Assembly (NCBI GenBank): GCA_036340075.1
Contig: JAYYZJ010000005.1
Span: forward strand, 101,980 to 165,979
Direction of reading: 5' to 3'
Origin: Thermodesulfobacteriota bacterium
Lineage (GTDB): Bacteria; Desulfobacterota_D; UBA1144
Length of the DNA: 64,000 nucleotides
The notes under the pieces are model-generated. The model saw nothing but the letters and a program-made list of their open reading frames with translations, was not told the origin of the DNA and made no database searches. Below, piece after piece: positions 3,007 through 61,171 of this stretch (positions are counted from its first letter, which is position 1; every line of letters starts with the position of its first letter). The position numbers were made by a program, and so were the translations under genes.

Positions 3007-3417
3007 TTAACCAGGCAATGAGCCTAGCGCCAAACCAACATTTTCCAATAAGATTTTAGCTTCTTCTGAAACTTCTTTGTTGTCATCTAAAGTTAAATTT
3101 CTCCAATGCTTAACAGTGTCAGCAAAGATAGTCTCTACAAAAGGGTTACAAGTGTCAAAATCTAATTCGGAATTCCAAGTTTCTAGAGCTATAAAAAAAT
3201 ATCCTGGCATTTTTTTATTGTAATATTTTGCAAGATATGGGTTTTTTCTTGCGAAAGCTTCCCATTCGCTTATCTCCATTGTTCTAATTTCCTTGGGGAA
3301 ATATTCTTTTTTATCATAGAGCTTATATTTCTTCATATATGATTCAGCATCTTTCTCGCTAATCATAGTTCTTCCGATAACTGATGCCTGAGAACCAGGA
3401 CCACAGGATTGTGTCAT
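3007..3417 (-). CDS. hypothetical protein, 136 aa
   Basis: ORF 8 nt upstream of the glutaredoxin-like gene on the same strand. No family recognised. Confidence 0.4.
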   Translation of the reverse strand: MTQSCGPGSQASVIGRTMISEKDAESYMKKYKLYDKKEYFPKEIRTMEISEWEAFARKNPYLAKYYNKKMPGYFFIALETWNSELDFDTCNPFVETIFADTVKHWRNLTLDDNKEVSEEAKILLENVGLALGSLPG

Positions 3418-3953: not shown

Positions 3954-4544
3954 TTAGGCGCTTTTAAGTTCTCGGATTTGTCTTTCTTCTTCTGTGAAAA
4001 CACCGTCAGCCACTGGAATAATTGAAGGAATCAAAGCTCCGCCTATACGAAGGAAATATTTCTCAAGCATTTCCTGAGTTTCTGACGCATAAAAAGAAGC
4101 CCTATGAAAAGTTAGATAGCTTCTCCAGTTATTGATTGTCGACCAAACAACAGTAGGTGGTGATACAACTTGTAAATCTTCGTTAGGTGTTCCAACGTGG
4201 GCCATTTGTAAAATGGTTATATCAATTATTTCATCCCCAACAATTGATTTTGGATCCCAGTTTTCTAAATCTTCTATAATTCTTCCTTGTAAAATAGTGT
4301 AATCATGCATAATGGCTTCGATTAATTTATCAGGGTTCCTATCTCTAAGATATTCTTCAAGGCAATCATAGGCAACTAGCTTAAAGGGATTGTTTGTATG
4401 ATAACCTTCGCCTTTGTCGCTTATTTGCTGAACATTACCCTTAATCTGAGGACGAAACAAAGTTTTTTCTAACAATCCTTTAGGAAAAATAGTGTCCTGG
4501 ATTGTGGAATACTTTTTTTGCTTCCAATCTATACCTTGAGCCAT
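3954..4544 (-). CDS. hypothetical protein, 196 aa
   Basis: ORF with coding composition and no recognisable motif. Confidence 0.45.
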   Translation of the reverse strand: MAQGIDWKQKKYSTIQDTIFPKGLLEKTLFRPQIKGNVQQISDKGEGYHTNNPFKLVAYDCLEEYLRDRNPDKLIEAIMHDYTILQGRIIEDLENWDPKSIVGDEIIDITILQMAHVGTPNEDLQVVSPPTVVWSTINNWRSYLTFHRASFYASETQEMLEKYFLRIGGALIPSIIPVADGVFTEEERQIRELKSA

Positions 4545-10162: not shown

Positions 10163-10452
10163 TGCCTAAGTATATAATGTTAAGTAATCTAACGGACGAA
10201 GGAAGAAAAACAGTAAAAATGCGTCCGGAAAGAATAAAAGAAGTTAATAATGAAATAGAAAAAATGGGAGCAAAAGTCCTAGAACAGTATGCGGTTCTCG
10301 GTGAATATGATTTTATCAATATTTTAGAGGCTCCAAACAATGAAACAATTTCAAAAATATCAATTGAGCTAGGTTCTAGAGGAACGATTCAATTTATAAC
10401 TTTAGCAGCAATGCCAATTGATGAGCTAGAAACTACTTTAGCATCTAAATAA
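10162..10452 (+). CDS. GYD-domain protein
   Basis: 96 aa. Shows GYD-family features (GEYDF motif). Confidence 0.55.
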   Translation: MPKYIMLSNLTDEGRKTVKMRPERIKEVNNEIEKMGAKVLEQYAVLGEYDFINILEAPNNETISKISIELGSRGTIQFITLAAMPIDELETTLASK

Positions 10453-10464
10453 ATCAATAGATTC

Positions 10465-11856
10465 TTATTCAAATGGAAAAGCCAAGTCAGCCACTATGCC
10501 GTTATGTACATATTTTTTAATATTTCCCGAATTTGGCAAAAGTATCCCTAGTCCAAAACTAACCTTATTCTGTATCCTAAAATTCAATGAGGACATTGTA
10601 TCTATAGGTGTGTTTTTCTCTGTAATTTGATCAATCATTTTAAAATTATAAGATAGCAAATAAGCAGAATTTTGTGATTTAAAGAGACTTATTTTGGCAT
10701 CATAAACAAGAAAATTTTCTTCTCTTTCTCCGCTATAATTATCTGAATTAAAAAAGTTTTCCGAAGACATGCCAACGCTGAGATACTTGGATGCAATCTC
10801 TCCACCAGTAGTAACAACTGTCGCATCATGAAGAGTGTCCTTTAAAAAAAATGTATTAGAGTACAATTTTTCCAGTCTATTTTTAGAATCATCCCATATT
10901 GTAGAAGTTGGGAAATTAACACTCAAAATACCAGAAAACGTTAAAATATTATTTGAATATATCATTTTTTTAATTCCTGATTTCATATTTCCTATTTCGA
11001 AACCATTGTCCACGACCTCATAATTTTTGTCATTACCGTCATATGCGCCTGCCCATGGAAACGATAGGAAAAAACTAAAATCTTTGGCAGTATTTGAAAA
11101 TTCAGCATCAACAAAATAAAAAATATCCGAACCTCCTCCTCTATATTGTTTTACATCAAAGAAATAAGTTCTGAATCTAAACAAATTACTGTAGGATCCA
11201 TTATTAGCAAGTAAGCTATATTCAGTATTGGAATAATCTTTATCGGAATACTTAAAAGGTTTATATATCATAAAAGATCCAGTCAATGGATTAAAGAAAC
11301 CAATATCTCCTTCTCTAAGAAAAATCTTCGCGGGATTTATGATATAGGACAAAGTCTTATTAAATTTACTAGGAGACTCTTCGAGCTTTTTATTAACTTT
11401 TTCAAAATATATACCCAAAGGAATCCCAAGACCGGGAGTAATCAATAAATCTATTGTTGATGGCTTTTCTACAGTGCCTTCTATAGCAAATTCCCACAAA
11501 GAGCTTTGAAGAATTGTTCCTAAGTAAGCTTGGTTATCGCTATAACCTAAGTCTTTGTAAACTTGATAATATAAAGCGCCAAAATAAGGATGATAAACAT
11601 AATTTGTAAGAAAACCATCTCCATCATTCCATTCGGGATTGATTATATTTTTCCCCCATTTCTTTGCACTAGTATCAAAAATTTTACTATCTTTGTTTCT
11701 TACATAAAGAATTCTTCCAGCCCACATAAAGTAATGTATATTCAATGAATCTTCTAGAAAGGTTCTATTGTCAACTTCTTTATTCTCTTCTGAAAATATA
11801 GGAATTGTAGAAAATATGAATATTAGAATTGCAAAAATAATTCTCATAAAAATCAC
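10465..11856 (-). CDS. secreted or outer-membrane protein of unknown function (signal peptide, beta-rich)
   Basis: N-terminal signal peptide (IFAILIFIFSTIPIFS). Rich in Y/F/N/S/G alternations typical of beta-barrel or beta-rich proteins. Overlaps the upstream GT4 gene by 4 nt. Confidence 0.55.
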   Translation of the reverse strand: MIFMRIIFAILIFIFSTIPIFSEENKEVDNRTFLEDSLNIHYFMWAGRILYVRNKDSKIFDTSAKKWGKNIINPEWNDGDGFLTNYVYHPYFGALYYQVYKDLGYSDNQAYLGTILQSSLWEFAIEGTVEKPSTIDLLITPGLGIPLGIYFEKVNKKLEESPSKFNKTLSYIINPAKIFLREGDIGFFNPLTGSFMIYKPFKYSDKDYSNTEYSLLANNGSYSNLFRFRTYFFDVKQYRGGGSDIFYFVDAEFSNTAKDFSFFLSFPWAGAYDGNDKNYEVVDNGFEIGNMKSGIKKMIYSNNILTFSGILSVNFPTSTIWDDSKNRLEKLYSNTFFLKDTLHDATVVTTGGEIASKYLSVGMSSENFFNSDNYSGEREENFLVYDAKISLFKSQNSAYLLSYNFKMIDQITEKNTPIDTMSSLNFRIQNKVSFGLGILLPNSGNIKKYVHNGIVADLAFPFE

Positions 11857-12968
11857 TTTAACCCTGAAAGAATTTTTTTAGCTCTATTTTCCCAGCTAAA
11901 ATCTTTTGATAATTCAAAAGCTTCGTTTGATAGCTGTTCTCTTTTTTCTGGGTTGTCCAATAAAATCTGTACAGAATCTTTAATCTCTTTGTAAGAATCT
12001 GGATTTACTAATAAAGCATTCTTGTTATTTTTTAATATATTAACAAAGGATGGTAAGTCAGAAGCAATAATTGGTTTCTTTGCAGATAAATATTCAAACA
12101 ATTTAATTGGGGAAGAAAAACTAGAAGCTACCTGATCTCCTTTTATCGTAAAATCAGAATCATAAGGAATTAAGAGTATGTCTGAAATCATAAGGTAATT
12201 TGGGATTTCAACATGAGGAACATGATTAGTAAAAAATATATTTCTTTCTTCTGTAATTAATCTTTTGTATTTCAAATTATCTTCTTTTTCTCCACCAATT
12301 ACTAAGAAGTAAATATTTTTGTAATCTTTTGCTAGTCGAATAATTTTCTCAATTCCTCTACCCTTATAGGTGTTCCCTACATATGAAATGACTTTTACAT
12401 CTATAGGTATATTTAATTGATTCTTAAATTTAATATATTCCTCATTTGGTTTAAAGTCTTGGATGTTTACTCCATTGTTAAGAACCTGAAATTTTTTATT
12501 GCTTTCCTTGTCTATCGCATTTCTTGTTCCTTCAGAATTACAAATTATTTTTAATATATTTTTAGACTCAACAAATCTTTTAATTGCGATTCTAGAAAAT
12601 AGATTTACCGGCGGGTGATGTATGTCTACAATAATATTATTCTTCAAGTAAGAGGCAAGAAAAGCAAAAGTAATATTTCTTGTAACAATACAATCGTAAT
12701 CACCCAAAGTTAGAACTTTAAAGAACGAAGATACTCCATGAAAGAAATGTCTCTTTGGTCCTTTTAAAAATCCCATAGAAGGATAAATTTTAAAATTTTT
12801 CTTTATTCCATAATAAGAAAAAAATTTATCTATTCGATCAGAAGAAATTGGAAGCATTAACGTGACTTCTTCGCCTATTTTTGAAAAAGCTTCACACATT
12901 CTAGCTACATGTATTGCGCTAGCGCCCTCGGTAAACACCTCTGGACTACCTATATAATATATTTTCAC
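11853..12968 (-). CDS. glycosyltransferase family 1 (GT4)
   Basis: 371 aa. C-terminal EYLSAKKPIIASDLPS motif (the E-x7-E region of GT4 enzymes) and a GT-B fold length. Confidence 0.8.
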   Translation of the reverse strand: MKIYYIGSPEVFTEGASAIHVARMCEAFSKIGEEVTLMLPISSDRIDKFFSYYGIKKNFKIYPSMGFLKGPKRHFFHGVSSFFKVLTLGDYDCIVTRNITFAFLASYLKNNIIVDIHHPPVNLFSRIAIKRFVESKNILKIICNSEGTRNAIDKESNKKFQVLNNGVNIQDFKPNEEYIKFKNQLNIPIDVKVISYVGNTYKGRGIEKIIRLAKDYKNIYFLVIGGEKEDNLKYKRLITEERNIFFTNHVPHVEIPNYLMISDILLIPYDSDFTIKGDQVASSFSSPIKLFEYLSAKKPIIASDLPSFVNILKNNKNALLVNPDSYKEIKDSVQILLDNPEKREQLSNEAFELSKDFSWENRAKKILSGLK

Positions 12969-37638: not shown

Positions 37639-38340
37639 ATGAAAAATCCTAAACCAAAACATATTGCAATTATAATGGATGGGAATAGACGCTGGGCAAA
37701 GGAAAATGGTACAAAAACTATAATTGGACACAAGCAAGGATTGGATACAGCTAAAGAAATTTGTATGTATGCCAATAAGATTCAAATCAAATTCCTAACA
37801 CTATATGCATTCTCAATTCAAAATTGGTCTAGATCAAAAAAGGAGGTAGAGTCTCTATTCGCTTTATTCTTAGAATTTTTTAACCAAAAAAGCAGCTTTA
37901 TCATCGAACAGAAAATGAAGTTCAATCCAATAGGAAGGGTTGGAGAATTAGATTCGAGAATTAAAAATGAGATTTATAAATTAGCAGAAGACACGAAAAA
38001 CAACAAAGGTACTTGTATCAATGTTGCAATTAATTATGGTGGAAGAGAAGAAATAATTGATTCTATAAAAAAAATAAATAATTTAAATATAGACTTAAAT
38101 AAAATAAGCGAAGAACAAATAAAGAAAAATACATATTTACCTGATTGTCCTGATCCTGAACTCTTAATAAGAACAGGAAGTACTTCTAGAATTTCAAATT
38201 ATTTGTTATGGCATATAGCCTACTCTGAAATTTTAATAAGTGAAAAATATTGGCCAGAATTTACAGTTTCTGATTTTCAAAAATGTATTAGCGAATATGA
38301 AAGAATAGATAGAAAATTTGGTGGAGCTAGTAATGAATAA
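37639..38340 (+). CDS. uppS: ditrans,polycis-undecaprenyl-diphosphate synthase
   Basis: HIAIIMDGNRRWAK, and the cis-prenyltransferase C-terminal region (ELLIRTGS...SNYLLWHIAYSE). Confidence 0.9.
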   Translation: MKNPKPKHIAIIMDGNRRWAKENGTKTIIGHKQGLDTAKEICMYANKIQIKFLTLYAFSIQNWSRSKKEVESLFALFLEFFNQKSSFIIEQKMKFNPIGRVGELDSRIKNEIYKLAEDTKNNKGTCINVAINYGGREEIIDSIKKINNLNIDLNKISEEQIKKNTYLPDCPDPELLIRTGSTSRISNYLLWHIAYSEILISEKYWPEFTVSDFQKCISEYERIDRKFGGASNE

Positions 38341-39493
38341 AAAGAATTTTGTAAGTATTTTGGGCTCAACTGGTTCAATAGGTAAACAAACCCTTTCTAT
38401 AATTAAAGAGCAAAGTGATAAATTCAAAGTTGAATCTTTAGCCGCAGGGAAAAATATATCTTTGTTACTAAAACAAGTATCTGAATTTAAGCCTAAAAGT
38501 ATATCTATAGAGAGCAAAAAAGATAAATTATTACTAGAAAAGAATCCTCTTTTAAAAAAAATAAAAATTTTCAATGGCGACGAAGGACTTAAAAAGATAG
38601 CAAATAGCAAAACTATAAAATCTCTTGTAGTTGCCACAGCTGGAGTCAATGGCCTTATTCCAACTATTGATTGTTTAAAACAAGGAAAAAGAGTCTGTAT
38701 AGCGAGCAAAGAAGTCTTTCTACTTTATGGAAAACAAATAATGAAAATAGCATCGAAGAACAATGCCGAAATTATACCCATAGATAGTGAGCATTCTGCA
38801 TTGTTTCAATTAATTGCCAACGAGCCAACAGAAAACATAAGAAGACTTTATATAACTGCATCAGGTGGTCCTTTCTTTAATAAGAAAAGAAAAGAACTTG
38901 AAAATGTTAAGCCTAGGGATGCTTTAAAACATCCTACTTGGAATATGGGTAAAAAAATATCAATAGATTCAGCAACAATGATGAATAAGGCTATAGAGAT
39001 AATTGAGGCATCAATAATGTTTGATATCAATCATAAGATGATTACACCTATTGTTAATCTTGATAGTAACATTCATGCTATAGCTGAATTTATTGATGGT
39101 ACTTACTCTATATCTGGTAGTTACAATGATATGAGAATACCAATTAGTTATTCTCTTAATTATCCGCTTAGACAAAATAAAAAGAAATACAAATTTGAAA
39201 TTCAAAAAAAGATAGAGCTGATACCAATAAAAGAAAAAGATTACGAAGCTATTAGAATTGCTAGAAGAGCAATTGAAATTGGGGGGACCATGCCAGCAAT
39301 TATGAATGCAGCAAATTCTACAGCAGTTAATCAATTTCTAAATAATAAAATTGAATTTCTTGATATTTATAGAGTTATCAAAAAAACAATGAAGAACAAC
39401 ATTCCTAAGCATAATGCTTCATTAAAAGAAGTTATTAAAATAAATAAAGTTGCATCTGAGGATGCTTTTAGGATATCTAATCAGTTATATTAA
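38318..39493 (+). CDS. dxr: 1-deoxy-D-xylulose 5-phosphate reductoisomerase
   Basis: ILGSTGSIGKQTL NADPH site, IPIDSEHSALFQ, and LYITASGGPF. Confidence 0.9.
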   Translation: MVELVMNKKNFVSILGSTGSIGKQTLSIIKEQSDKFKVESLAAGKNISLLLKQVSEFKPKSISIESKKDKLLLEKNPLLKKIKIFNGDEGLKKIANSKTIKSLVVATAGVNGLIPTIDCLKQGKRVCIASKEVFLLYGKQIMKIASKNNAEIIPIDSEHSALFQLIANEPTENIRRLYITASGGPFFNKKRKELENVKPRDALKHPTWNMGKKISIDSATMMNKAIEIIEASIMFDINHKMITPIVNLDSNIHAIAEFIDGTYSISGSYNDMRIPISYSLNYPLRQNKKKYKFEIQKKIELIPIKEKDYEAIRIARRAIEIGGTMPAIMNAANSTAVNQFLNNKIEFLDIYRVIKKTMKNNIPKHNASLKEVIKINKVASEDAFRISNQLY

Positions 39494-39498
39494 TAAAC

Positions 39499-40827
39499 AT
39501 GACTAGCATAATTACTTTTCTTATAATTATTAGTTTTCTTATATTTGTTCACGAACTAGGACATTTGCTTGCTGCTAAATGGGCAAATGTAAAAGTTGAA
39601 GTCTTTTCAATCGGTTTTGGTAAAAAGCTTTTTTCTTTCAAATATGGAGAAACTGAATACTCTCTATCTTTACTGCCTTTGGGTGGATACGTTAAGATGC
39701 ATGGGGAAGATGCAATTGAAGAAGAATCTACAACCAACACAAAAATTAAAATAGATGAAGATAGAAGCTATAAAAATCTACCTAATTATAAAAAACAAAT
39801 TATTCTATTTGCTGGTCCATTGATGAATCTCTTAATACCATTTATATTTTTTCCAATAATTCATATGGGCGGCGTTGAGATGCCAGCATTTCTAGAAAAA
39901 GCACCTGTTGTTGGATATTATGAAGACAGCTCCAAAAACTCCTTGTTCAAGGAAAATGATTTAATTCTCAAAATTAATAATACAGATGTAGATTCATGGA
40001 AGTCTTTATTAAATAAAAAAAATGAGTTTATTGAGAATAATCAAACAATATTTATAGTTAGAGATTCAGAAGTTAAAAAAATCAATATATTAAAGGATTC
40101 AAGCAATAAAGTTATTATTGATAAGATTTATCCAATTCAAGATCCAGTTGTATCTCAAGTAATACCCGGAAGCAAAGCTGAAGAAATTGGTTTAATGAAA
40201 TCCGATATTATTAAAGAAATAAATGGGACAAAAATTTACAATTGGTATCAAATTAGTAGAGTCTTAAACACAAAAAATGTTTACGAATTTAGTGTAAAGA
40301 TTCAAAGAGGGGATAATATTTTTGATAAAAATGTAATATTCGACTCAAATGCTAGTAGGAAATTATTAGGGATTTCTCCATTAATAGAACTAAAAGAAGA
40401 AAAACTAGGTTTCTTTTCCTCAATAAGTCGTGGCTTTCATGATTCTCTAAGGGCTATAGATTTAATATTTAATGGAATTATGAGCCTTCTTTCTGGACTA
40501 TTCAGTTCAGAATCAAGTATGGGGGATATTAAAAATTCACTTGCTGGTCCTATAGCAATAGCAAAATATTCAGGCGCTGCTGCCGAAAAAGGAATTAATT
40601 CTTTGATTCAATTTATGATTGTAATAAGTATTAATCTCGGAATAATAAACCTCCTACCTATACCGCTACTAGATGGTGGTCACATATTCTTCAATTCAAT
40701 TGAAATGATTACAAGAAGAAAAATTAATCAGAAATTTTTAAATTTTGCAAATAGAATTGGTTTTGCAGCATTGATAACTTTGATGCTTTTTGCTATATAT
40801 AACGACTTTGTAAATTTAGTAAAATAA
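39499..40827 (+). CDS. rseP: RIP zinc metalloprotease RseP (site-2 protease) with PDZ domain
   Basis: HELGH at TM1, central PDZ domain, and the C-terminal LDGG motif (LLPIPLLDGGHI). Confidence 0.85.
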   Translation: MTSIITFLIIISFLIFVHELGHLLAAKWANVKVEVFSIGFGKKLFSFKYGETEYSLSLLPLGGYVKMHGEDAIEEESTTNTKIKIDEDRSYKNLPNYKKQIILFAGPLMNLLIPFIFFPIIHMGGVEMPAFLEKAPVVGYYEDSSKNSLFKENDLILKINNTDVDSWKSLLNKKNEFIENNQTIFIVRDSEVKKINILKDSSNKVIIDKIYPIQDPVVSQVIPGSKAEEIGLMKSDIIKEINGTKIYNWYQISRVLNTKNVYEFSVKIQRGDNIFDKNVIFDSNASRKLLGISPLIELKEEKLGFFSSISRGFHDSLRAIDLIFNGIMSLLSGLFSSESSMGDIKNSLAGPIAIAKYSGAAAEKGINSLIQFMIVISINLGIINLLPIPLLDGGHIFFNSIEMITRRKINQKFLNFANRIGFAALITLMLFAIYNDFVNLVK

Positions 40828-57394: not shown

Positions 57395-57448
57395 TTTAAT
57401 ACATTTACTTAAAAAAAATAATTTTATTAAGTCTTATGTTCTTAATTA

Positions 57449-57477
57449 AGAAAAAAGAAGTCTTTTTCTTTTTTTTT
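57449..57477 (+). terminator. possible weak rho-independent terminator after panD
   Basis: 7-bp stem AGAAAAA/TTTTTCT, loop AGAAGTC, followed by T8. A low-stability AT-only stem. Confidence 0.35.
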
Positions 57478-57479
57478 AA

Positions 57480-57509
57480 TTGACTTAATTTTTTTTAAAA
57501 GTTATAAAT
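57480..57509 (+). promoter_or_regulatory. candidate sigma-70 promoter (TTGACT-17 nt-TATAAAT) for the nucleotidyltransferase/CDP-alcohol transferase pair
   Basis: -35 at 57480-57485 and -10 at 57503-57509. GGAGAG RBS before the ATG at 57538. Confidence 0.4.
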
Positions 57510-57537
57510 AACAACAGCAACGTATTGGAGAGTTTGA

Positions 57538-58293
57538 ATGAAAGCTATCATATTAGCTGCAGGAAAAGGAAAAAGACTTCAACCTTACACAAAGAATATA
57601 CCAAAATGTCTTTTACAATTAGGAGCAGAAACAATTCTTGAACATCAAATAAATCATCTGAAATCCTCTGAGATTCAGGAAATTAATGTTGTTGTAGGAT
57701 TTGGAAGTGAGAAAGTAGAAGAATTTCTTAGTAATTATGATTCATTGGGGATTAAAATTAACACTATATATAATCCATATTGGGAATCAACAAATAGTCT
57801 TTTTTCTCTTTGGGCAGCAAGAGCTGAATTAGATTCTGATGTAGTAGTTCTAAATGGTGACGATGTATTTGAGCTAAATGTTCTCAAATTGGCAATATCT
57901 AGTAAGCATGAGATAACGCTTCCTTATAAAGTAAAAGAAAAATATTCCGATGAGGATATGAAAATAAGGATTCAAGATGGTCTTCTTACACAAATTAGTA
58001 AGGAGATTAACAAACCCAATGGAGAATCTGTAGGGATAAGAGTATTTAGACAAGAAGGTGTTGGTGTACTTAAAAGATCTCTTGAGAAAGAAATAAGAAC
58101 CACGGATTTTAACAAAAAATGGTATGCATCTGCTATTGAAAGAATCTTACAAAGAGGTCATAAAATCAGCGTAATAGATATTGCTGATATGTACTGGCAT
58201 GATGTTGACTATCCTCATGATTTAGAAAATGCTAAAGAGAATATTCTTCTAATTAGCAACAAAAAGTCTAATACGAAGCTTAGTATAGTTTAG
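57538..58293 (+). CDS. sugar/alcohol-phosphate nucleotidyltransferase (NTP_transferase family, LicC/cytidylyltransferase-like)
   Basis: MKAIILAAGKGKRLQPYT G-rich loop; length 251 aa. Confidence 0.75.
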   Translation: MKAIILAAGKGKRLQPYTKNIPKCLLQLGAETILEHQINHLKSSEIQEINVVVGFGSEKVEEFLSNYDSLGIKINTIYNPYWESTNSLFSLWAARAELDSDVVVLNGDDVFELNVLKLAISSKHEITLPYKVKEKYSDEDMKIRIQDGLLTQISKEINKPNGESVGIRVFRQEGVGVLKRSLEKEIRTTDFNKKWYASAIERILQRGHKISVIDIADMYWHDVDYPHDLENAKENILLISNKKSNTKLSIV

Positions 58294-58303
58294 TTTCTAT
58301 AAA

Positions 58304-59542
58304 ATGATTACAATTATCCTCTGTAAAGGAAAAGGTGTAGACTCAGAAGAGCTAAATCTCTTTAATAAAGAGAAAGTAGCTGATATTCATCTATTCGAAA
58401 GATTTTTAATAGGCTTATCAAATCAGGGATTCAATGAGAGTGTTATAATTTCGGATGAAGATTGTCTTCTTAATGAATTACATTACCGCTATCCATCTTC
58501 TAGAGTTCAAAGAAAGAGCAAGATAGATGATTTATTAATCAATAGAGATATACTCATTGTTCAAAACAATGTTGTTGCTAATAAAAAACAAATCTCAAAT
58601 TTGTTAGAAGTAGTTAATGATTACAACCAATCCTTTATTGGGAAAAACGATAAAGAAGAAAAATGCGGTATAGTTTTTCTTAAGTCATCCGATATAAAAT
58701 CTAATAATTTAGAAATTAATAACATATCAAGTCTTAACGGAAAAGTAAAAGAAATAATACTTGATGATCCACCAAAAAAGATTTCAGTGGAAGAGATTAA
58801 TAGCAATGCTGCTAGAGATTTTCTCTTTAATCATATTAGTAAAAATGTTAGTGGTTGGGTATCAAAAAATATAAATAGTAAAATTTCTATACCCATAAGT
58901 AAGATATTAGTAAAAATGAATTTTCATCCTAATTGGATAACATTTTTCGTAGGCTGTATAGGAATATCCTGTGGATTTTTCTATGCGTCTAATTCTCCAA
59001 TAGTGGCTGCTATCATATTACAGATATCTACCATTTTAGACAGATGCGATGGAGAAGTAGCAAGGATTCGCCTTAAGGAATCAAAATTTGGTCAATGGTT
59101 TGATACTGCTTTAGATCAAATTTCATATTTTTCTATGTTTGTAGGTATAAGTATTTGTTTGAATAATCCTAAATTTTTTACAATTAATCCAGAAATTAAC
59201 ATACTAAGACAAATATCAATTTTAAATGTTTTACTTTATATAATATTTTTAACTATAATTTTATTTTTTATGCTTCGCAGGACTAAAAATGGCAGTTTAG
59301 CTTATTATCCATTAGAAATAGATAGAATTGTGCCTTTAGAAAATAGATCTTTGTTTTATAAGATAATGACCAAATTCCGTTTTCTAGCAAAAAGAGAATT
59401 TTTTTCTCCTGCTATGATAATTGTTAGCTTGATAGGATATGAATTTGCAACTTTAATGGCTTTTGTAATTTTATTCTTTGGAATTATTCATTTAGCTGCA
59501 GATTTCCTAGAAGCAAGAAAAAGAATAGATATTACCTATTAA
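58304..59542 (+). CDS. fusion: degenerate nucleotidyltransferase-like N-domain + CDP-alcohol phosphatidyltransferase membrane domain
   Basis: The N-terminus MITIILCKGKGVD resembles the NTase loop but lacks the conserved R/K pattern. The C-terminal membrane domain carries DRCDGEVARIRLKESKFGQWFDTALDQ, matching D-G-x2-A-R-x8-G-x3-D-x3-D. Confidence 0.7.
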   Translation: MITIILCKGKGVDSEELNLFNKEKVADIHLFERFLIGLSNQGFNESVIISDEDCLLNELHYRYPSSRVQRKSKIDDLLINRDILIVQNNVVANKKQISNLLEVVNDYNQSFIGKNDKEEKCGIVFLKSSDIKSNNLEINNISSLNGKVKEIILDDPPKKISVEEINSNAARDFLFNHISKNVSGWVSKNINSKISIPISKILVKMNFHPNWITFFVGCIGISCGFFYASNSPIVAAIILQISTILDRCDGEVARIRLKESKFGQWFDTALDQISYFSMFVGISICLNNPKFFTINPEINILRQISILNVLLYIIFLTIILFFMLRRTKNGSLAYYPLEIDRIVPLENRSLFYKIMTKFRFLAKREFFSPAMIIVSLIGYEFATLMAFVILFFGIIHLAADFLEARKRIDITY

Positions 59543-59617: not shown

Positions 59618-61171
59618 TCATTTTTTAAACACCTTTTTGAATACCAAAGCAAATATGGCAAGAAAAATTGAAGCTAAAAGTATTCTAGCGAATTTGGACC
59701 AAAACGATACTTTAAAAATCATTGAATTTGTACTGGTAATATCTTGTATTAACCAAGAAAATATTAGAATTATTAGAAACAGAGGTAGAAAGTATTTAAA
59801 TACTTGATTATAAATTTTTGGAATCTTAATTAAGCTAGCTCTATTGATTTCTTCAACATGATTTTTTGGAGATATATAAATAATATAGATTGCTATCTCG
59901 ACCAAGGCTAACACTACTAATAAAACAGTTCCAGCCCAAAAATCAAATTCTTCAAGGATTTCTGGAACAAATATAACGAAATTAGCAAATAAGAATATCG
60001 TTAAAATTACTATAAGGCTTGATTTTTGTTGAGAAAAATCAAATTCTTCTTTAACAAAAGTTATAACAGGTTGCAAAATTCCTATAGAAGAAGTAAGTCC
60101 AGCAATAAACAACAAAAAGAACCATACAAAACCTATAGTTGCCCCAAACGGTAACCCATCAAAAATTGCTGGCATGGCAATAAATCCTATAGTAAAGGCG
60201 CCTGATTGTGCTACTAGGACAGCTCCTGCTATACCTAAAAATGCCACAGCTGCAGGAATAACTATAGACCCTCCAAAAACAACTTCAATTAGTTCATTTA
60301 ATGATGATGATGAGAGTCCACTTAAAGCTATATCTTCATCTTTTCTTATAAATGATGCATAGGTAACTATTGCTCCAAATCCTAAACTTAAAGTAAAGAA
60401 AACTTGTCCTGCAGCAGCTATCCATACTTTTGGATTAGACAAAGAAGTAAAATCTGGAGACCATAGAAAGTCAAAACCTTTTACCGCAGAAGAAACAGAA
60501 GTTTCGATAGTTAGCACGTAAATCACCATAAATATACTCATAAGAAATAATGCTGGCATTGCAAACTTTACAAACTTTTCTATGCCTTTAGATATACCTT
60601 TATGTAAAATTGAATAATTAATTATCAAAGTAAGCAAAAAACAGCTATAAGCAAAGAAAGAAGGGATTAAGAAAGTATCTTTATTGCCAGAATTACCTGT
60701 GTATTCAGTGAAAACATTTTTAAAAAAACTCATCTTTTCTTCAGTAAGAAATACATCAGATTGCAATTGTCCAAACAATGATTTCATTGAATACCCTAGA
60801 GTCCAAGATTCTATATAAATATAATAAATCGAAATAATCAAAGGGATCCATATTCCCAATATCGAACCTATTTGAATAATCTTTCCTGAATTTAATTTGG
60901 ATGAAATTCCAAAAGTTGTCCCTTTACCAATCGAACCACCATGTCTCCCTATCCCCCATTCAATCCACATCAATGGAATACCTATACAAATAAAACAAAT
61001 TATATAAGGGAGAAGAAAAGCGCCTCCACCATTTTCAGCTGCTTGTACTGGGAATCGTAAGAAATTTCCCAACCCTATAGCATTCCCAGCCATTGCTAGA
61101 ATCAGACCATATTTTGTAACCCAAAAATCTCTACTATTCTCTTGTTCTGGCACACTATAAATTAACACCAT
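59618..61171 (-). CDS. sodium-dependent transporter, SNF (neurotransmitter:sodium symporter) family
   Basis: 517 aa, 12 TM. NSS signature GNAIGLGNFLRFP. Confidence 0.85.
   Translation of the reverse strand: MVLIYSVPEQENSRDFWVTKYGLILAMAGNAIGLGNFLRFPVQAAENGGGAFLLPYIICFICIGIPLMWIEWGIGRHGGSIGKGTTFGISSKLNSGKIIQIGSILGIWIPLIISIYYIYIESWTLGYSMKSLFGQLQSDVFLTEEKMSFFKNVFTEYTGNSGNKDTFLIPSFFAYSCFLLTLIINYSILHKGISKGIEKFVKFAMPALFLMSIFMVIYVLTIETSVSSAVKGFDFLWSPDFTSLSNPKVWIAAAGQVFFTLSLGFGAIVTYASFIRKDEDIALSGLSSSSLNELIEVVFGGSIVIPAAVAFLGIAGAVLVAQSGAFTIGFIAMPAIFDGLPFGATIGFVWFFLLFIAGLTSSIGILQPVITFVKEEFDFSQQKSSLIVILTIFLFANFVIFVPEILEEFDFWAGTVLLVVLALVEIAIYIIYISPKNHVEEINRASLIKIPKIYNQVFKYFLPLFLIILIFSWLIQDITSTNSMIFKVSFWSKFARILLASIFLAIFALVFKKVFKK

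Follow-up and report, generated by a model that had tools for sequence, protein, structure and literature searches.

CDP (cytidine diphosphate)-alcohol phosphotransferases set which polar lipids and phosphodiester solutes a cell can make, and the locus described here raises the question of what is made by two adjacent genes that pair such a transferase with a nucleotidyltransferase. The genes lie on the + strand of a 64,000-nucleotide (nt) stretch of DNA, hereafter the window, from a Thermodesulfobacteriota bacterium (GTDB lineage Bacteria; Desulfobacterota_D; UBA1144; assembly GCA_036340075.1, contig JAYYZJ010000005.1, positions 101,980 to 165,979 of the forward strand). The first gene (57538-58293) encodes a nucleotidyltransferase of 251 amino acids (aa) that is predicted to be active, here called protein 1; the second (58304-59542) begins after a gap of 10 nt and encodes protein 2, a fusion of 412 aa in which a nucleotidyltransferase-like N-terminal domain precedes a membrane-embedded CDP-alcohol phosphotransferase domain. 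An earlier, sequence-only reading of the locus had given the same open reading frames (ORFs), lengths, and gap and had proposed a module for the activation and transfer of a polar head group. As the two genes share a strand, are separated by only 10 nt, and are adjacent across loci, we treat them as a single operon for a CDP-alcohol head-group pathway. On balance, and with modest confidence, we favor a Kennedy-type route, in which a soluble CDP-alcohol is formed and then donates its phospho-alcohol to a membrane lipid. A lipid product is probable as judged from the gene neighborhoods of relatives, and inositol phosphate is our tentative leading candidate among single alcohols.

The first step of such a route would fall to protein 1, which scores above the family cutoffs of both PF00483 (NTP_transferase; 62.8 bits against a cutoff of 21.2, E = 4.8e-17) and PF12804 (NTP_transf_3; 46.5 bits against 27, E = 5.8e-12). 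Its catalytic motifs comprise an LAAGKGKRL loop, a PK lysine, and a GDD. The G-rich loop, noticed before as intact, is indeed complete, and a motif census found GxGxR together with PK in 117 of 117 homologues. Invariant across the family are G9, G11, R13, P22, K23, D108, D109, K142, W220, D222, and D224. Among specific NCBIfam models, the best match is the IPCT half of NF041135 (bifunctional IPCT/DIPPS), at 9e-25 and 87.5 bits against an equivalog cutoff of 580.

When a profile of protein 1 was compared with the PDB, LicC (1jyk) came out at 1.5e-18 with an alignment confined to aa 1-107/115, the N-terminal nucleotide-binding half. The IPCTs of T. maritima (4jd0; 4e-15) and A. fulgidus (AfIPCT, 2xme; 6e-13) were matched over their full length, and the 2-aminoethylphosphonate (AEP) cytidylyltransferase 6pd1 (2e-14, full length) and ST0452 (3.5e-14) followed at a strength similar to that of the IPCTs. 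Protein 1 does not qualify as a LicC, as the choline-binding C-terminal half is unmatched and no LicA-type motif occurs in the window, nor is it a canonical sugar-1-phosphate enzyme of a polysaccharide cluster. We assign it to the LicC/IPCT (COG1213-like) group by these family, profile, and residue matches, and its substrate is not readable from it; the IPCTs, the AEP cytidylyltransferase, and ST0452 match it equally, so the caution of the sequence-only reading that the product cannot be read from the letters still applies to the alcohol.

The second step would be carried out by the C-terminal part of protein 2 (aa 183-412 plus the stop codon; 58850-59542, +), which consists of a juxtamembrane helix and a domain of six transmembrane (TM) helices. 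Its aa 208-326 match PF01066 (CDP-OH_P_transf) at 45.9 bits (cutoff, 22; E = 1e-11). The signature D246xxD249G250xxA253R254x8G263xxxD267xxxD271 (59039-59116, +) is complete, as had been read from the sequence; all eight of its residues are invariant in 20 aligned homologues, and it is the sole such motif in the window. An AlphaFold2 model of the full-length protein (predicted local distance difference test [pLDDT], 86) has a juxtamembrane helix and about six long helices over aa 209-407, interrupted by a conserved short-helix insert at aa 327-363, and its core fold matches the cores of AF2299, DIPPS, and PIPS. By its signature, its Pfam score, and its core of at least six TM helices, protein 2 is a class I CDP-alcohol phosphotransferase (PF01066), and the fusion of a cytosolic domain of nucleotidyltransferase fold to the TM core makes it an AF2299-like member of that class.

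Scores against more specific models narrow the assignment further. Protein 2 matches the DIPPS half of NF041135 at 2.7e-23 (82.6 bits; equivalog cutoff, 580), AIPS at 7e-17, PIPS at 2e-12, PssA at 4e-6, and PgsA at 1e-3. Neither protein is an IPCT/DIPPS equivalog, because scores of about 85 bits stand against a cutoff of 580, and the nucleotidyltransferase domain of the fusion is itself incompetent (GKGVD, deleted lysine segment, Asn89). Inositol phosphate leads among the candidate alcohols because the transferase scores best against enzymes that handle inositol phosphate (DIPPS, AIPS, and PIPS) and far worse against PssA and PgsA. We hold to it only tentatively, since the module has no neighboring inositol-1-phosphate synthase (MIPS) gene in any of the loci and nucleotidyltransferases of this subfamily are versatile in their chemistry.

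The same scores weigh on the most conventional explanation, according to which protein 2 would be an ordinary CDP-diacylglycerol-dependent synthase of the PgsA, PssA, or phosphatidylinositol-phosphate (PIP) synthase type, its N-terminal domain a mere stabilizer, and the nucleotidyltransferase part of an unrelated pathway. Many homologues are labelled "phosphatidylglycerophosphate synthase" by JGI pipelines, there are weak matches to models of PIP synthase and archaetidylinositol-phosphate synthase, and PIP synthases tolerate a graft of the AF2299 domain with activity unharmed (PMC4634129). We nevertheless consider this explanation highly improbable: the inositol-phosphate-type models outscore PgsA and PssA by many orders of magnitude, which also means that the C-terminal domain is no standard PgsA or PssA, the juxtamembrane motif fits enzymes with a hydrophilic pocket, and the nucleotidyltransferase gene lies directly upstream in all Dadabacteria-type loci and in four further loci (L011, L016, L017, and L018) in which the flanks have changed.

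What, then, is the domain in front of the transferase? An AlphaFold2 model of aa 1-182 (58304-58849, +), built on a 14-sequence alignment, reached a pLDDT of 89.9, and all 50 of its 50 top Foldseek matches in the PDB were nucleotidyltransferases (E about 1e-5, TM scores of 0.5-0.6, 10-15% identity), among them RmlA, GDP-mannose pyrophosphorylases, IspD, CobY, KdsB, MurU, and AfIPCT. Profile-profile alignment with the protein 1 family by hhalign gave a probability of 91-92% and an E value of about 1e-6. The N-domain is thus nucleotidyltransferase-like by fold and by profile and no plain cytoplasmic loop. Its alignment to this active family shows what has been lost. The loop reads G-K-G-V-D13 opposite the G-K-G-K-R13 of protein 1, so that Arg13 has become Asp13; the PK-lysine segment is deleted; the invariant metal-binding Asp108 of protein 1 stands opposite an invariant Asn89, a mapping that falls in a low-confidence stretch of the alignment; and a lid segment of about 45 aa, which in protein 1 holds the invariant charged residues K131, E139, D140, K142, and K155, is absent. 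Some counterparts are still present, namely, G122 for G166 of protein 1 and DDPP for its W-D-V-D-Y-P end motif. GxGxR together with PK was found in none of 117 fusion homologues.

These losses agree with the sequence-only reading, which had seen an N-terminal domain stripped of catalytic residues and a module in which the activating enzyme is split off and the fused copy inactive. As judged from alignment and model, the N-domain is a pseudoenzyme that has kept the nucleotidyltransferase fold and is predicted to have lost catalysis. It is not decaying but under purifying selection: the ratio of nonsynonymous to synonymous substitution (dN/dS), calculated against a 77%-identical orthologue (L001), is about 0.19 for the N-domain, 0.075 for protein 1, and about 0.02 for the TM domain, for which dS is saturated. 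The N-domain also has invariant residues of its own (G9, E15, R33, Q87, and N89).

The dead domain is no peculiarity of this genome. An exhaustive profile search over 1.84 billion representatives returned 248 with an E value of 1e-30 or less, and among the best 150 of these, 113 were full-length proteins, of which 21 had an intact catalytic loop in the N-domain and 92 had none, so the dead-domain architecture is the common state of the family. A degenerate-domain fusion is not unusual in itself, as AF2299 has one (PMC4634129) and it is common in the family.

The pairing with a free nucleotidyltransferase is equally persistent. The host belongs to a Dadabacteria-like marine lineage of pelagic type (the window has 30.3% GC); proteins identical to both are deposited at NCBI under a Thermodesulfobacteriota metagenome-assembled genome, and its relatives carry database labels such as "Deltaproteobacteria TMED58," "Candidatus Dadabacteria," "bacterium HR37," and similar names; the contigs that carry some of the marine relatives measure about 1.05 Mb. 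When marine members of the lineage are compared with the others, protein 1 is about 55% identical and protein 2 only about 30%. The two genes are adjacent in every Dadabacteria-type locus examined, by gene calls in L003, L004, L006, L008, L009, L010, and L013 and by ORF layout in L002, and also in the unrelated contexts of L011, L016, L017, and L018. In L011 the gene for a free nucleotidyltransferase (38% identity to protein 1) extends into the start of the gene for a dead-domain fusion, which is 33% identical to protein 2 and has the same T-x2-G-S-L and K-R-(D/E)-F-F loop motifs; in L016, L017, and L018 the nucleotidyltransferases are 38-40% identical to protein 1.

In the Dadabacteria-type loci the wider synteny runs through an aminotransferase, panBCD, the pair, DksA, MtnA, and BamD, and the pair follows panBCD in L003, L004, L006, L008, L010, and L013 (gene calls) and in L002 (ORF layout). 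We regard the proximity to panBCD as inherited synteny and not as a functional link, because the pair has entirely different flanks in L009. A role in coenzyme A metabolism, for example, through activated pantetheine, was considered and rejected, as the module occurs away from panBCD in L009, L011, L016, L017, and L018.

Of the characterized systems, AF2299 of Archaeoglobus fulgidus (PDB 4o6m, 4o6n, and 4q7c) is the best solved match of protein 2, at 2.9e-19 from the single sequence and 2e-30 from the family profile. In full-length fold comparison the two align over their whole length (E = 8e-11, target-normalized TM score of about 0.68), with the alignments to 4o6n and 4o6m covering about 415 columns. 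They share the GW(V/I)(S/A)..IN.K(I/V)S juxtamembrane motif, the full signature, and the two-domain layout; the JM1 motif of protein 2, SGWVSKNINSKIS, is common to AF2299 and DIPPS. AF2299 differs in that it is archaeal, is only about 20% identical, and was crystallized with CDP-glycerol. Unlike AF2299, protein 2 contains, between TM4 and TM5, a conserved insertion of about 35 aa (RRTxNGSLAYYP...KREFFSP), carries Ser for Arg in the JM1 "INRK" motif, and is always paired with a free nucleotidyltransferase gene. PMC4634129 describes the AF2299 N-domain as cytidylyltransferase-like and states that the donor pocket of AF2299 and DIPPS, unlike that of PIP synthase, is small and hydrophilic; in AF2299 this pocket accommodates the glycerol moiety of CDP-glycerol.

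The other close relative is the bifunctional IPCT/DIPPS (AF0263, PDB 4mnd, NF041135), which the sequence-only reading had named as the parallel, and the comparison holds: NF041135 is the best specific NCBIfam model for both proteins, and AF2299 and AfIPCT/DIPPS are the top structures. AfIPCT/DIPPS matches protein 2 at 2e-21, and the fold match to 4mnd runs over the whole length and both domains, with a query-normalized TM score of 0.62. The chemistry would also be alike, with cytidine triphosphate (CTP) and a phospho-alcohol giving a CDP-alcohol whose phospho-alcohol is then transferred; in the alignments, the IPCT half is covered by protein 1 and the DIPPS half by protein 2. The differences are that the active nucleotidyltransferase is encoded here by a gene of its own, next to a fused copy that is dead, that the scores are about 85 bits against 580, that no MIPS gene is nearby, that the host is a mesophile-type marine bacterium, and that operons of relatives point to a lipid.

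This likeness gives the strongest rival to a lipid product its substance, and we consider it a serious though unlikely explanation. The module would then be a split IPCT plus DIPPS-like pathway to a soluble phosphodiester compatible solute, such as di-myo-inositol phosphate (DIP), glycerophosphoinositol, or diglycerol phosphate, with donor and acceptor both soluble and a phosphatase encoded elsewhere finishing the product. Besides the NCBIfam matches of both proteins, it is favored by the soluble substrates of AF2299 and AfDIPPS, the nearest solved structures, and by the six-TM architecture, the form described for soluble-acceptor enzymes (both from PMC4634129). An IMPase-family gene lies three genes 3' of the relative in L012, and ipct/dipps genes have been reported in nonthermophilic deep-sea Thaumarchaeota (PMC8397731). 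However, scores of 82.6 and 87.5 bits lie far under the equivalog cutoff of 580, the window holds no MIPS or IMPase gene, and DIP otherwise goes with growth at temperatures above 55°C (PMC8397731), while the present genome is of a pelagic type with 30% GC. Retention of the module in genomes of about 1 Mb, as estimated from contigs, would further suggest a core role, not a stress-specific one. A soluble solute would also leave several operon partners of the relatives unexplained.

These partners are the main reason why we favor a lipid. In L016, L017 (a TARA ocean sample), and L018 the order is nucleotidyltransferase, dead-domain fusion, a PF03706 ("LPG_synthase_TM") gene, and an outer-membrane efflux protein (OEP) gene, with MlaC in addition in L016 and L018; the genes are co-directional, with small gaps or none. 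PF03706 is a flippase-like membrane domain of the MprF type, and MlaC carries phospholipids in the periplasm. A PF03706 gene is also divergently adjacent to a relative whose nucleotidyltransferase domain is intact (L014). In nonmarine Dadabacteria the next co-directional gene is of the Asp_Arg_Hydrox family (L006, 11346-12122; L008, 10134-10916; L010, 10110-10907), and NF052565, a model for OlsC-like lipid acyl 2-hydroxylases, matches the copy in L006 at 4e-105 and 350 bits, below the model's cutoff of 450. Two GT4 glycosyltransferases directly follow the pair in L009 (10207-12479). The PF03706, MlaC, OlsC-like, and GT4 neighbors of the relatives therefore suggest a membrane lipid that is probably trafficked to the outer membrane, and they favor a lipid over a compatible solute because the operon partners are lipid related. 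A literature search found no report of an operon joining a CDP-alcohol transferase, a nucleotidyltransferase, MlaC, and a flippase, and a search on Dadabacteria and inositol returned nothing relevant.

Several details of these loci deserve mention in their own right. In L018 (11275-13752) PF03706 and the OEP are called as one protein of 825 aa, while in L016 and L017 they are two genes; a fusion of an inner- with an outer-membrane protein is odd and may be an artefact of gene calling or a frameshift. The Asp_Arg_Hydrox gene is absent from the marine clade (the window and L002), consistent with genome streamlining. The L009 locus comes from a JGI contig (3300044939; protein P0121) whose nucleotidyltransferase is identical to one labelled "Candidatus Methanosuratincola sp." at NCBI; its neighbors (LysM/NlpC-P60, HslUV, XerC, SecDF, and PheS) are bacterial genes, some of them in synteny with the window (PheS-SecF), which suggests that the contig is mis-binned. 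The window has a GT4 gene of its own (11853-12968, -), next to a DUF3943 protein (10465-11856), that is 33% and 28% identical to the L009 GT4s and is a possible distant functional partner, for example, in glycosylating the product.

Glycosyltransferases could also be read differently, namely, as a sign that the module decorates a nonlipid or complex envelope acceptor, such as lipopolysaccharide core, capsule, glycan, or glycoprotein, with phosphocholine, phosphoethanolamine, 2-aminoethylphosphonate, or phosphoglycerol. The GT4s behind the module in L009 are joined here by a Wzx-type Polysacc_synt gene divergent to it in L017, by LicC, a phosphocholine cytidylyltransferase, as the strongest PDB match of protein 1, by the full-length alignment to AEP cytidylyltransferase, and by the NCBI name "phosphocholine cytidylyltransferase family" for its homologues. 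We judge decoration improbable, given that the LicC match is limited to the N-terminal nucleotide-binding half, that the NCBI name is only an architecture-level label, and that motif searches and Pfam revealed no choline kinase, phosphoenolpyruvate (PEP) mutase, or LicD-type transferase in the window. We also know of no CDP-alcohol phosphotransferase of this clade that acts on glycans.

For the Kennedy-type route with a lipid acceptor, the following sequence of events can be proposed. Protein 1, to judge from its family and intact catalytic residues, would use CTP to convert a small, polar, phosphorylated alcohol into a soluble CDP-alcohol; the leading candidate is inositol-1-phosphate, and phosphoglycerol, phosphocholine, phosphoethanolamine, and phosphoglycerate are others. 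This CDP-alcohol would be bound by the six-TM domain of protein 2, in the small, hydrophilic donor pocket that the juxtamembrane helix forms; as the complete signature of the domain and its homology to AF2299 and DIPPS suggest, the phospho-alcohol would then pass to an acceptor hydroxyl, and CMP would be released. Going by the neighborhoods of the relatives, the acceptor is most likely a lipid alcohol of the membrane, for example, diacylglycerol, dialkylglycerol, or a ceramide-like lipid, and an envelope phospholipid would be formed with no need for CDP-diacylglycerol, as in the case of Rhodothermus BEPIS.

Two bacterial systems make such a route plausible. In Rhodothermus marinus, IPCT/BEPIS, a bacterial IPCT/DIPPS homologue, uses CDP-inositol as a soluble head-group donor and transfers inositol phosphate from it to dialkylether glycerol, a lipid alcohol (Jorge et al. 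2015, as summarized in PMC4587543). Its operon includes inositol-3-phosphate synthase and IPCT (PMC4587543), while no MIPS was found here, and our comparison with it is by description only. A putative cluster of Bacteroides vulgatus has separate NTP-transferase and CDP-alcohol phosphatidyltransferase genes, for which CDP-inositol and then phosphatidylinositol have been proposed, and its BT_1521-type "lysyl-PG synthase" neighbor parallels the PF03706 genes beside relatives of the module (PMC9246714). That cluster differs in that it contains MIPS and a HAD hydrolase, is itself unconfirmed, and has no reported pseudo-nucleotidyltransferase domain.

The dead domain may have a place in this scheme as well. 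Speculatively, and by analogy, the N-domain would be a structural platform on which the free nucleotidyltransferase docks at the membrane, and the IPCT/DIPPS fusion would thereby be re-created noncovalently. A dead partner of nucleotidyltransferase fold beside a live one is known from GMPPA/GMPPB and VTC1-KJC2, complexes of which (8yre and 7d72) are among the fold matches of the N-domain. Those partners differ in being soluble regulatory subunits of sugar-nucleotide enzymes, and the interaction between protein 1 and the N-domain is so far only postulated.

A number of observations weigh against the favored route, and we bring them together here. No MIPS gene lies beside the module in about 15 loci examined, while MIPS is clustered with these genes in Rhodothermus (PMC4587543) and Bacteroides (PMC9246714). 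A six-frame motif search of the 64-kb window for MIPS, CdsA, PLD, PEP mutase, and choline kinase found none of them; two "SKSN" strings that it turned up are spurious and lie on the wrong strand of other genes. The PF03706, MlaC, OlsC-like, and IMPase genes of the relatives gave no tblastn matches in the window, and as the window is without PF03706, MlaC, and OlsC-like genes, the argument for a lipid draws on relatives whose transferases share only 30-33% identity with this one. AF2299 and IPCT/DIPPS, the two nearest solved relatives, process no lipids, and lipid-acceptor CDP-alcohol phosphotransferases usually have three to four extra C-terminal TM helices (both as described in PMC4634129); such helices are absent from protein 2, which has about six TM helices and the insert at aa 327-363. 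COG1213-type nucleotidyltransferases take phosphosugars, phosphocholine, phosphoglutamine, and phosphoglycerate (PMC12275187), and because of this variety the alcohol is not assignable from protein 1. Finally, that the N-domain may dock the active enzyme is an argument from analogy.

The DNA around the module offers a few candidate signals. A Shine-Dalgarno-like GGAGAG (57527-57532, +), the last base of which lies 5 nt before the ATG of protein 1, can be read from the sequence. On the 3' side of panD, an A/U-rich hairpin with a 16-bp stem, a 4-nt loop, and a U run (57445-57480, +) is a candidate intrinsic terminator; the 86 nt from 57395 to 57480 fold at -16.4 kcal/mol (z = -3.4), and 0 of 200 shuffled sequences were equally stable. 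The terminator that the sequence-only reading had placed behind panD is in this respect supported, as the hairpin beats all shuffles, but it fails the G+C-rich rule of the consensus scan, which called neither a promoter nor a terminator between panD and the gene for protein 1. The claim that the module has a promoter of its own was not supported by the scan. A promoter-like TTGACT-17 nt-TATAAA (57480-57508, +), picked out by eye, is a candidate only and no better than expected by chance in such AT-rich DNA, and the scan found promoter-like sites less often than in shuffled sequence (12 versus 16.6).

The SNF-family gene that was predicted to converge on the module is present at 59618-61171 (-) and is a full-length LeuT orthologue (4.7e-156, 524 bits to 2a65). 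An SNF-type gene (Pfam) occupies the same position in L006, L008, and L009, and L002 has a 506-aa ORF there; in L013 the position is taken by an AgcS-type Na/alanine symporter (10293-11786, -). The idea that the SNF protein imports the head-group alcohol, suggested by its staying beside the module in L009 despite the changed flanks, was rejected, as the protein is a LeuT orthologue, an AgcS-type symporter stands in its place in L013, and no SNF gene accompanies the module in L003 and L010. The gene probably encodes an amino acid transporter unrelated to the module, and the exchange of SNF for AgcS looks like a nonorthologous replacement of an Na-coupled amino acid transporter beside panD and an alanine-dehydrogenase region. 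Elsewhere in the window, six ORFs between 1144 and 8349 (357, 136, 196, 248, 230, and 244 aa) have no Pfam match, and at least three of them (1144-2217, 3007-3417, and 3954-4544) have a loosely similar stretch (MYWRLMLFTGDLDEKQKKIVKYYLD, HWRNLTLDDNKEVSEEAKILLEN, and NNWRSYLTFHRASFYASETQEMLEKYF), which suggests an uncharacterized paralogue family.

One further feature of the window concerns the conventional route to phospholipids. The uppS gene (37639-38340) overlaps dxr (38318-39493) by 23 nt and is followed by rseP (39499-40827), with the usual cdsA of this cluster absent; the six-frame motif search found no CdsA signature in the window. Because cdsA is missing between uppS and dxr/rseP, a partial or whole replacement of the CDP-diacylglycerol route in the streamlined marine clade can be envisaged. 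Were cdsA absent from the whole genome, the cell would have no CDP-diacylglycerol route, and the CDP-alcohol module would be all the more important. In its boldest form, which we hold to be quite unlikely, the proposal is that a Kennedy-type route supplies Dadabacteria, and several other uncultured lineages that have the operon, with a major envelope phospholipid, that the soluble CDP-polyol is handed straight from the free cytidylyltransferase to the membrane transferase through a conserved pseudo-cytidylyltransferase docking domain, and that this route may replace the CDP-diacylglycerol route in the marine clade.

Within the AF2299/IPCT-DIPPS/BEPIS group, our findings place the module in an uncharacterized and widespread subfamily that has divided activation and transfer between two proteins and has retained a dead activating domain. 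The architecture as such is already known from the solved AF2299, and the lipid-trafficking operon context comes from relatives. The module is a compact two-gene form of the IPCT/DIPPS logic, in which the fused activating domain is dead yet selected and the free copy would do the chemistry, and its pseudoenzyme domain could offer an example of substrate channeling by a dead paralogue. To our knowledge, few bacterial examples use an activated head group instead of activated diacylglycerol. Should the product prove to be a DIP-like solute, a supposed thermophile marker would extend to bacteria of the cold ocean. If it is a lipid, the module would represent a widespread and unstudied head-group pathway of the Gram-negative envelope and would give a physiological context to the solved AF2299 architecture.

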